A stretch of 64,000 nt of DNA from positions 1-64,000 of IMG/VR virus record IMGVR_UViG_3300008108_000044. One strand, 5' to 3'. The notes under the pieces were generated by a model. That model did no database searches. It worked only from the letters and a program-made list of their open reading frames with translations, and had not been told where the DNA came from. Numbering within the stretch: the first letter of the stretch is position 1; every line of letters begins with the position of its first letter. This document shows, piece after piece, positions 20,186 through 47,821 of this stretch. Position numbers and translations under genes: made by a program. The stretch comes from a virus.

Positions 20186-20201
20186 TGTATCAGGAAATAC
20201 A
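20186..20201 (+). promoter_or_regulatory. NtcA binding site
   Basis: TGTA-TCAGGAAA-TACA matches GTA-N8-TAC with the preferred flanks. Confidence 0.65.
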
Positions 20202-20209
20202 CACAAAGC

Positions 20210-20238
20210 TTGCTATATAAAGTAACTAGGGGTATAAT
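20210..20238 (+). promoter_or_regulatory. Sigma70-type promoter
   Basis: TTGCTA-17 nt-TATAAT; the -10 is flanked by TAGGGG/CCCCTA inverted repeats. Confidence 0.7.
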
Positions 20239-20248
20239 AATCCCCTAA

Positions 20249-20502
20249 CGTTCATCCTATGACTAAGGCACTTTTGCTCTTGGCATGGGTTCCACTTCTT
20301 TCTATTTCTACGCCTCAACTTGCTAAATCTAATCAGGTGACAATAAGTTGCGACGCAGCGTGGGAACTAATGGACATCGTTAAAAACGACGATGTAGTAG
20401 ACCAAAGAAGAGAAGACCGATTGCTATCAGAACTCCGAAAGGATGTTGTGAAACTTAAGTGCTAAACAATTAAATAGGACGGAAGTAAGCCGACTCGGAA
20501 CG
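20249..20502 (+). ncRNA. Glutamine riboswitch (glnA motif)-like aptamer 1 with ORF inside the P2 loop
   Basis: CGTTCA-TCCTAT...ATAGGA-CGGAAGTAAG..GGAACG; P1 CGTTC/GAACG, P2 TCCTAT/ATAGGA. Confidence 0.65.
20259..20465 (+). CDS. Small protein with signal-peptide-like N-terminus and C-x36-C, nested in aptamer 1
   Basis: 68 aa ORF; ATG lies in the P2 5' strand. Confidence 0.55.
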   Translation: MTKALLLLAWVPLLSISTPQLAKSNQVTISCDAAWELMDIVKNDDVVDQRREDRLLSELRKDVVKLKC

Positions 20503-20505
20503 GAT

Positions 20506-20675
20506 CGTTCATCTATGGAGACACTCATTCTTACATGTTTACAAGCACAATTAATTGCTGGGAGAGTTCATCAACAGAACATTCCCAAACAAGCAAAGAA
20601 TGATTTAATTTGGGAGATCAAACAGATCTCTCCAAAAGAGTGTAAAATAGACGCAAAAGCCGACTGAAGGAACGC
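20506..20675 (+). ncRNA. Glutamine riboswitch (glnA motif)-like aptamer 2 with ORF inside the P2 loop
   Basis: CGTTCA-TCTAT...ATAGA-CGCAAAAGCCGACTGAAGGAACGC; directly upstream of the DUF4278 gene. Confidence 0.7.
20515..20667 (+). CDS. Small protein (50 aa, C-x34-C) nested in aptamer 2; not in ORF track
   Basis: Manual translation METLILTCLQAQLIAGRVHQQNIPKQAKNDLIWEIKQISPKECKIDAKAD. Confidence 0.55.
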   Translation: METLILTCLQAQLIAGRVHQQNIPKQAKNDLIWEIKQISPKECKIDAKAD

Positions 20676-20707
20676 TCTTTAACCTCAAAAACTAAGGAGA
20701 AAACCTA

Positions 20708-20869
20708 ATGTCACAAGTCACTTATAGAGGGTGTAAGTACAACACCGAAGATGCAAAAAGAGAGTATGTCTCTTGGTATAACCAAACTCATGCTCCTGCT
20801 CATCCACATAATACATATCGTGGAGTAGCATATCGTCCTTGTAATAATAACAAGGAGGTATCACAATGA
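20708..20869 (+). CDS. DUF4278 domain protein (53 aa; not in ORF track)
   Basis: MSQVTYRGCKY...NTYRGVAY, two YRG(V)xY repeats; AAGGAG RBS. Confidence 0.8.
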   Translation: MSQVTYRGCKYNTEDAKREYVSWYNQTHAPAHPHNTYRGVAYRPCNNNKEVSQ

Positions 20870-20970: not shown

Positions 20971-21000
20971 AAAGGAGGGGTTGATCCCCTCCTTTTTTTA
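20971..21000 (+). terminator. Rho-independent terminator overlapping the next promoter
   Basis: AAAGGAGGGG-TTGAT-CCCCTCCTTT hairpin plus T-tract; TTGATC-17-TATAAT overlaps it. Confidence 0.8.
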
Positions 21001-21031
21001 TAGTATAATTTAAAAGAGTTCTTCATCTAAA

Positions 21032-46969: not shown

Positions 46970-47040
46970 GCGAATGTGGTGTAGCGGTAACATCCCATCC
47001 TTCCAAGTTGGTGTCACGGGTTCGATCCCCGTCATTCGCT
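46970..47040 (+). tRNA. tRNA-Gly(TCC)
   Basis: GCGAATG/CATTCGC acceptor stem, CTTCCAA anticodon loop, GGTTCGAT T-loop. Confidence 0.9.
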
Positions 47041-47103
47041 TGGGGAAGTGATCCTGCGGTTCTGTCCAAGAGCTCTCCTTCCCCTTTTTACAAACTGAAT
47101 ATC

Positions 47104-47352
47104 ATGAAGACAAAACCTTTTTATTCCGACCTAATTGAAATGCCTGTAAAGACAACACCAGAAAATGTCAAGGAAGCAAACCTAGGTCTTTTTAATTGTA
47201 CGATGACACTTCCTGCTGCCGCAGTTCACTGTGGTATGACACAGAAGGAAATGAAAATGACCTTCCGTGAATATTTGAAGTATCATCCACCCACTTATGG
47301 GAGCGTGGTGGAATCGGTAGACACACCAGACTTAAAATCTGTCGGGAATTAA
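47104..47352 (+). CDS. Cyanophage hypothetical protein; 3' end overlaps tRNA-Leu
   Basis: M.LPAAA.HCGMT.KEMK.TF motif; ATG at 47104 (47140 also possible). Confidence 0.5.
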   Translation: MKTKPFYSDLIEMPVKTTPENVKEANLGLFNCTMTLPAAAVHCGMTQKEMKMTFREYLKYHPPTYGSVVESVDTPDLKSVGN

Positions 47353-47383
47353 TCCTGTGGGGGTTCAAGTCCCCCCGCTCCTA
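47299..47383 (+). tRNA. tRNA-Leu(TAA)
   Basis: GGGAGCG/CGCTCCT acceptor, CTTAAAA loop, long variable arm, GGTTCAAG. Confidence 0.9.
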
Positions 47384-47460
47384 CTGGGAGGAGTAATAAA
47401 GGGATAGAGTATAACTCTCCGCCTCCCTCCAACTAAATATAAAAAAAGATGGTATGATGC

Positions 47461-47748
47461 ATGAAGCTTAAAATTACTAAAGCTTATTGCTGGCACTCAC
47501 CAGAAAAATCAATAAGAAACGTAGTAATGATGTACTTCATAAATTCTATACCATTTACATGGGATGATTTAACGGAAGAGGAAGAACAAAATCCAGAAGT
47601 AGTAATTCAAGCAAATAATAATGTTGTATATACTGCTGAAGATTTATTCAGAGCTTCTGCTTATTTGATAATGGAAGAAGCACATCCGTGTTTTTTTGAA
47701 ATGGAATTAGAAAATCCTGAAGTATTGGCAGAATTAGATGATTTTTAA
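47461..47748 (+). CDS. Conserved cyanophage hypothetical protein
   Basis: MYFI..IPFTWD...YLI.EE.HP. Confidence 0.55.
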   Translation: MKLKITKAYCWHSPEKSIRNVVMMYFINSIPFTWDDLTEEEEQNPEVVIQANNNVVYTAEDLFRASAYLIMEEAHPCFFEMELENPEVLAELDDF

Positions 47749-47749
47749 T

Positions 47750-47821
47750 GCCCTTGTAGCTCAGTGGTAGAGCAACGGTTTTGTAAACCGTTGGTCGCTG
47801 GTTCAAATCCAGTCGGGGGCT
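47750..47821 (+). tRNA. tRNA-Thr(TGT)
   Basis: GCCCTTG/CGGGGGC acceptor, TTTGTAA loop, GGTTCAAAT. Confidence 0.92.

Follow-up and report, generated by a model that had tools for sequence, protein, structure and literature searches.

Can an aptamer still be an aptamer when a whole protein-coding gene sits in the loop of one of its helices? This question is raised by a locus in the window analysed here, which is a stretch of 64,000 nucleotides (positions 1 to 64,000 of the IMG/VR virus record IMGVR_UViG_3300008108_000044). An earlier note on this DNA had described two consecutive elements resembling glutamine riboswitches, each with an open reading frame (ORF) inside the P2 loop, and had proposed that folding of the RNA and translation of the nested ORF exclude each other. 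The record is 79.5 kb long and about 38% complete according to CheckV, its closest DNA relatives are T4-like cyanophages (Kyanoviridae), and the public runs in which this stretch occurs are metagenomes of lakes and fresh water. Three tRNA genes (Rfam, 56-72 bits) are clustered at 46970-47821 of the window. Type-1 glutamine riboswitches often occur in tandem (PMC2864571, PMC9481103, PMC6212724), and in the Synechocystis gifB/IF17 leader glutamine turns expression on (PMC6212724). We consider it probable that the locus is a tandem type-1 glutamine riboswitch leader of a gifB-like operon in which the P2 loops have been replaced by genes and which would switch in a glutamine-dependent way. The features are listed in Table 1.

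Table 1. Features of the tandem aptamer locus, in window coordinates.
Feature	Position	Strand	Details
Sigma-70-like promoter	20210..20238	+	TTGCTA-17-nt spacer-TATAAT; consensus scan, 10/12 matches
Aptamer 1 of the tandem glutamine riboswitch	20247..20505	+	Covariance model R1: 52.5 bits, E 2.9e-13, full model length
Aptamer 1, P1	20249-20253 with 20498-20502	+	
Aptamer 1, P2	20255-20260 (TCCTAT) with 20474-20479 (ATAGGA)	+	Loop of 213 nt
Local hairpin, 5' end of ORF1	20256..20289	+	CCUAUG (P2 5' strand and AUG) with CAUGGG; in the minimum free energy structure (MFE)
ORF1, 68 aa, in the P2 loop of aptamer 1	20259..20465	+	
Aptamer 1, core	20480-20497	+	CGGAAGUAAGCCGACUCG
Aptamer 2	20506..20674	+	R1: 29.8 bits, E 3.9e-8, filters off
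Aptamer 2, P1	20506-20510 with 20670-20674	+	
Aptamer 2, P2	20512-20516 (TCTAT) with 20647-20651 (ATAGA)	+	Loop of 130 nt
ORF2, 50 aa, in the P2 loop of aptamer 2	20515..20667	+	
Aptamer 2, P2 extension	20521-20526 with 20638-20643	+	
Aptamer 2, core	20652-20669	+	CGCAAAAGCCGACUGAAG
SD-sequestering hairpin (predicted)	20675..20699	+	CUCUUUA (20675-20681) with UAAGGAG (20693-20699); in MFE
DUF4278-like (gifB/IF17-like) gene, 53 aa	20708..20869	+	
Basic ORF, 33 aa	20866..20967	+	From the ORF list; conserved and annotated in S-SRM01
Intrinsic terminator, end of the transcription unit	20971..21003	+	10-bp stem with 6 G-C pairs, and T run

Both aptamers contain the conserved core ACG[G/C]AAGUA... 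/ ...GGAACG, with CGTTCA at 20249-20254 and 20506-20511 and GGAACG at 20497-20502 and 20669-20674. The positions given before for these boxes, for the P2 strands and for both ORFs all agree with the sequence; only the 5' strand of P1 in aptamer 2 had to be corrected, as it starts at 20506 and not at 20507. Rfam reported no glnA match in the window, neither in the gathering scan (the gathering cut-off of RF01739 is 35 bits) nor in a scan at E <= 10, and none in the whole record. The likely cause of this miss in the window is the length of the P2 loop inserts and not missing aptamers. When short-loop aptamers of relatives at the same locus were scored with RF01739, they reached 35.6, 34.2, 33.5, 33.3 and 28.9 bits, and outside P2 the halves of the window aptamers are identical to such short-loop aptamers. 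Aptamer 1 has the same core as the DSL-LC02 aptamer scoring 35.6 bits, and the core of aptamer 2 is found again in short-loop aptamers of relatives, but these were not among the ones scored with Rfam. In the Rfam alignment of the relatives, P3 is no more than a 2-bp AG/CU helix, and the CC-to-UU changes fall in the P3 loop. Related phages differ in their loops: S-CREM1 has short loops in both aptamers, and its record annotates a glnA riboswitch there; S-PM2 has short-loop forms too; and in DSL-LC02, DSL-LC03 and S-SRM01 a normal aptamer 1 is followed by an aptamer 2 that holds an ORF2 homolog. In one related phage the UCCUAU/AUAGGA stem closes a loop of 8 nt (short-loop variants are seen at metatranscriptome joints).

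To span the inserts we used an insert-tolerant covariance model, R1, trained on 47 short and 18 long phage aptamers. The training set left out the two cargo families of the window, and the annotated pairs were restricted to P1 and five P2 pairs. With default filters R1 gave a single match in the 64-kb window, which is aptamer 1 and in whose alignment P1 is paired, and with the filters off a second match was obtained, which is aptamer 2. A resemblance of this order is well beyond chance. A covariance search after deletion of the inserts had been suggested before; R1 answers it in spirit, as it matches both elements across their inserts. Canonical short-loop homology, the covariance-model matches, P2 covariation and coding-type substitutions (see below) together support the claim of tandem glutamine aptamers that each carry a protein gene in the P2 loop.

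For either aptamer to form, its P1 and P2 strands must meet over a long distance, 213 nt in aptamer 1 and 130 nt in aptamer 2. Among 200 unique long units, P2 pairs 3 to 5 each occur as two or three Watson-Crick types: pair 3 is C-G in 110 and U-A in 85 units, pair 4 is A-U in 79, U-A in 69 and C-G in 41, and pair 5 is A-U in 108 and U-A in 75. These positions are paired in 96.5% of cases, versus 56% with shuffled partners and 22-53% with slid partners, and taking a single representative of each stem type gives 87% versus 57%. The P2 strands never vary within each cargo type of the window, which is neutral as to their pairing, and the P1 strands are likewise invariant, so that the covariation signal stems from the comparison between cargo types. 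The covariation across homologs that the earlier note had asked for is thus present in P2. For aptamer 2, RNAalifold predicted P1, P2 and the extension helix independently from 62 sequences; 96.4% of the cells in the pair counts are paired versus 20-58% with a slid partner, double changes occur in three pairs of the P2 extension, and P2 with its extension is present in the unconstrained MFE. Cargo variants that lack the extension have P2 itself lengthened to 7-8 bp. For aptamer 1, forcing P1 and P2 costs 1.7 kcal/mol over the MFE. RNAalifold, run on 28 unique relatives, predicted a local hairpin where ORF1 begins, in which a single pair covaries (A-U in 20, G-U in 6 and G-C in 2); this evidence is weak, since these bases also code for a conserved peptide. 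The hairpin could form in place of P2.

The four P1 strands are identical, which makes the topology of the tandem ambiguous. The 3' strand of P1 in aptamer 1 and the 5' strand of P1 in aptamer 2 (20498-20510) are complementary and may form a GAACG-GAU-CGUUC hairpin in competition with the two P1 helices. We therefore have to consider an interlocked topology in which the outer P1 strands pair, the junction strands form this hairpin and the tandem is one composite element. The MFE of the whole leader indeed has the outer strands paired (20249-20253 with 20670-20674) and does not show two separate aptamers, and the 3-nt linker is strongly conserved (CGGAACG-N3-CGTTCAT, at least 119 IMG/VR loci). 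The P2 strands, however, match within and not across the aptamers (UCCUAU/AUAGGA versus UCUAU/AUAGA), single aptamers of the glnA class fold alone, and some relatives (L048, L050 and L154) have an inter-aptamer linker of 21-22 nt instead of 3 nt. As the P1 strands are invariant, they provide no covariation to choose between the topologies, and the MFE of a single sequence is not decisive as an arbiter for the whole leader. Overall, we regard the interlocked form as rather unlikely.

Another possibility is that the long-loop units have lost glutamine binding and that their halves now serve as translation contexts, RNA-stability elements or recombination linkers. This would fit with the failure of Rfam to detect long-loop units, with the slower folding that a loop of 130-213 nt should cause, and with one relative in which the 3' strand of P1 in aptamer 2 has decayed (L026:1125-1175, GAAACA for GGAACG). 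Against such decay, the core nucleotides are invariant whereas the ORF interiors vary freely, and the long-range P2 helix covaries. Moreover, phages with two long aptamers, such as this one and Syn19, do not have a short aptamer at all and yet both cores are intact. The invariant aptamer strands include the codons of the IDAKAD tail, indicating that the constraint at these codons acts on the RNA. Loss of ligand binding is in our opinion improbable.

What do the loops encode? ORF1 has a hydrophobic N terminus that looks like a signal peptide (judged by eye only), and its cysteines C31 and C68 are kept in nearly all relatives. Protein-based retrieval gave 246 relatives of ORF1 and 269 of ORF2 in IMG/VR. 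The dN/dS ratio of ORF1 is 0.18-0.37 in frame versus about 1 in the other frames, and that of ORF2 is 0.20 in frame versus 0.69 and 2.4 out of frame, with the variation in ORF2 concentrated at third codon positions. The coding-type conservation that had been named as a check on the nested ORFs is therefore found in both (in-frame dN/dS 0.2-0.37 versus 0.7-2.4 out of frame). The ORF2 frame runs through the 3' strand of P2 and the ligand core, and its UGA lies 2 nt before the 3' strand of P1. When ORF2 was aligned with the marine cargo (45 sequences), two cysteines, C8 and C43, were the only invariant columns. AlphaFold2 models ORF2 as a two-helix hairpin (pLDDT 86, helices 8-19 and 25-37); the model of ORF1 is of low confidence (pLDDT 64) and has no hairpin. 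A proposal that ORF1 and ORF2 are paralogs of one family was dropped as unsupported (hhalign probability 0.2%). Based on dN/dS, codon positions, conserved cysteines and the helical-hairpin model, both nested ORFs are genes.

The opposite reading, in which the inserts extend P2 as structured, non-coding RNA and the ORFs are there by accident, could appeal to the better folding of the region compared with shuffled sequence (z = -5.0). It would have to explain why the variation falls at third positions, why dN/dS is low only in the ORF frame, why almost every one of the hundreds of relatives keeps its frame open (a truncation, at 35 aa, was seen in one ORF1 homolog), why the cysteines are kept, and why a confident helical-hairpin model is obtained. 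We find it hardly credible.

Database searches suggested no function for the cargo: Pfam gave no family, the PHROG entries all read 'unknown function', nothing but unnamed viral clusters came from the ESM Atlas, and a Foldseek search against the PDB had no match at E <= 0.001. ORF1 matched no Pfam and no PHROG family, and ORF2 showed a weak match to PHROG 504 (E 1.2e-3, 19.5 bits). The marine aptamer-2 cargo matches PHROG 504 strongly (E 5.8e-24), and the marine aptamer-1 cargo is PHROG 6471. There are at least 1799 database clusters for the cargo, all 'hypothetical protein' among the matches listed. Many database entries for aptamer-2 cargo (P0009, P0017-P0020, P0023 and others) are 75-98 aa long and not 53 aa; these are probably gene calls that were extended upstream through the preceding aptamer.

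In all complete loci retrieved by protein, the ORF is nested inside an aptamer. There were eight apparent exceptions, which turned out to be cut contigs, the variant with the 21-22-nt linker and one decayed P1. For the marine loci retrieved in this way nesting was found in 16 out of 16. Classified by the loops of aptamers 1 and 2, the loci (not de-duplicated) are long/long in 80 cases, short/long in 56, long/short in 20 and short/short in 2, so inserts are present or absent independently of each other. The cargo is diverse, and the same subfamilies are found in either aptamer. The junction pattern given above also served as a cargo-independent census of IMG/VR: among the matches listed, one or both aptamers are long in 74 of the 101 fully classified loci (about 73%), with a few spurious calls of a 'long' aptamer 1. 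A relative of the marine aptamer-2 cargo is encoded in 309 cultured cyanophage records, always as a 'hypothetical protein'. Syn19 has long loops in both aptamers (Syn19_186 and Syn19_187), and there was no Rfam match at that locus. Among 185,579 cellular species genomes, a pattern for the freshwater cargo type only gave one match, on a 3.7-kb contig of a metagenome-assembled genome (MAG) that is probably phage.

The geometry of the units is regular. In 189 of 191 units the ATG of the nested gene is 9-11 nt past the point where CGUUCA begins, and in 121 of 126 aptamer-2 ORFs the stop codon is the UGA or UAA of the core. This bears on a reading in which the small genes are passengers in a permissive P2 loop. 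They would gain a strong promoter, their translation would not be meaningfully regulated by glutamine, the ligand would control only the downstream gene, and interference with folding would be a tolerated cost. The independent coming and going of the inserts and the exchange of cargo subfamilies between the two aptamers are what one would expect of passengers; P2 loop length is free in this family, and the conserved aptamer halves would be suitable joints for recombination. On the other hand, the position of the ATG and the shared frame and stop are too regular for neutral cargo, every cargo type keeps or extends the closure of P2, and a free-standing copy occurs in none of the complete loci. 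We consider the passenger reading less likely than regulation by glutamine.

The stretch from promoter to terminator is transcribed as one unit, as seen from the promoter and terminator scans and from the depth of RNA contigs. The promoter scan predicts a transcription start at about 20245, and this agrees with the end of a metatranscriptome contig (X17), which stops at 20245 and abuts Illumina adapter sequence. Contigs from four metatranscriptomes, each from a different study, cover the unit. Contig depths were used qualitatively, and they do not support a rigorous ranking of expression. In these terms, depth jumps in the bin 20229-20275, reaches hundreds to thousands over 20229-20745 in the richest runs (X15 and X16) where flanking genes have about 50 or less, and drops to about 0-2 at 20981-21027. 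Two smaller metatranscriptome runs show a weaker rise over 20229-20745, and within the unit the depth is uneven, with a few bins near zero.

Two further elements were seen around the promoter. At 20228-20246, just 5' of aptamer 1, the TATAAT -10 box lies between the arms of an inverted repeat (AGGGG ... CCCCT), and in relatives other but again complementary arms flank the same TATAAT (AGAGG/CCTCT, ATGG/CCAT). This arrangement resembles the promoter-stem-loop cassettes of T4-type phages. Upstream of the promoter, at 20186-20199, lies an NtcA-type box (GTA-N8-TAC); S-CREM1, DSL-LC02 and several IMG/VR relatives likewise have it 5' of their tandem aptamers. It is centered about 52 nt ahead of the predicted start and not at the canonical -41.5.

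The tandem sits in a 5' leader, the promoter (20210-20238) and the aptamers being followed by a 53-aa gene, which had been called DUF4278 before. Its Pfam match to DUF4278 (E 2.5e-4, 21.8 bits) stays under the cut-off of 25.3, and we therefore call the gene DUF4278-like. It also matches PHROG 5049 (E 6e-12), and the same gene follows canonical tandem aptamers in S-CREM1, S-SRM01 and DSL-LC02. Presumably, the 53-aa gene is under the control of the tandem switch. The DUF4278-like gene and the 33-aa ORF overlap by ATGA (20866-20869), which suggests translational coupling, and in S-CREM1 a single ORF seems to unite features of both. The predicted hairpin that would sequester the Shine-Dalgarno (SD) sequence is present in most relatives of the window type (-4.4 to -5.7 kcal/mol) and absent from a second class of leaders. 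This hairpin is weak, and as a universal expression platform it was rejected, since it is missing from some relatives.

How could one RNA serve as aptamer and as message? That the ATG lies within the 5' strand of P2 and that ORF2 ends in the aptamer core, as stated in the earlier note, was confirmed in the sequence. No Shine-Dalgarno sequence was found upstream of the nested AUGs. As the same nucleotides are used by both processes, we infer that translation and folding are mutually exclusive: a folded aptamer and a translating ribosome could not share one RNA molecule. The 3' half of each unit would be made only well after the 5' half, which may allow a first ribosome to load ahead of aptamer folding. 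Once formed, the glutamine-stabilized fold would hold the AUG in P2 and block further initiation on the nested gene, and the DUF4278-like gene would be switched on by glutamine, as in the Synechocystis gifB leader. A ribosome terminating on ORF2 would cover the 3' strand of P1 and the adjacent anti-SD CUCUUUA, and this could couple ORF2 to the downstream gene. The net result would be that low glutamine favors the mini-proteins and high glutamine the protein resembling an inhibitor of glutamine synthetase (GS). One observation that counts against this explanation is that the AUG of ORF1 is also paired in the local hairpin at 20256..20289. Going one step further, and tentatively, the locus could be a 'gene-in-aptamer' bifunctional RNA, in which the aptamer provides the context for start and stop, one ligand reciprocally controls two sets of proteins, and the aptamer halves act as joints for the shuffling of cargo.

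Riboswitch aptamers are usually taken as non-coding, and both Rfam and the published surveys leave out units that are interrupted by an ORF. The loci described here indicate that in abundant cyanophages of marine and fresh waters, long-cultured isolates such as Syn19 and S-RIM2 among them, conserved genes routinely lie inside aptamers of a well-studied class, and many phage glutamine riboswitches have probably been overlooked. In the published survey of tandem arrangements, domains were counted as tandem only if there was no ORF in between (PMC2864571 and PMC9481103 are the sources on tandems). PHROG 504 and PHROG 6471, which correspond to T4-like gene clusters 430 and 936 in Syn19, are annotated as hypothetical proteins only, and their position inside an aptamer was not recorded in the phage records inspected. 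They would now become tied to the nitrogen status of the host during infection, which would give a handle on their function. The locus also offers a natural system in which to study how ribosome loading and the long-range folding of an aptamer compete kinetically.

Compared with the type-1 glutamine riboswitch (RF01739), the elements described here share P1 (CGUUC/GAACG), the core, the variable P2, the frequent tandem arrangement and a place 5' of a gifB-like (DUF4278-like) gene. They differ in that the terminal loop of P2 is a gene of 130-213 nt with its start codon in P2, in that the ligand core of aptamer 2 contains a stop codon, and in that the Rfam model is blind to such units. In the literature that we searched on glutamine riboswitches and cyanophages, nested aptamer ORFs and tandem glnA RNA, conserved genes nested in a riboswitch hairpin were not found. 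The only precedent that we found for translation inside an aptamer is the B12 riboswitch of Mycobacterium tuberculosis metE, where the upstream ORF uMetE2 is translated in the P9-P10 extension of the aptamer and interferes with the output (PMC11260477). The likeness is that an ORF, there shown to be translated, lies inside the aptamer domain. Whereas uMetE2 is short and is treated in that paper as a cis-acting modulator of MetE expression, the cyanophage ORFs form families of 50-68 codons that are under purifying selection in hundreds of phages and carry invariant cysteines. Group I introns, which carry homing-endonuclease ORFs in peripheral loops and whose helices close over long distances, are alike in that a functional folded RNA tolerates a whole gene in a terminal loop. 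In contrast to these introns, the host RNA here belongs to a ligand-sensing aptamer class and is not a ribozyme, the cargo is without endonuclease features, and the aptamer itself contains the start and stop codons.
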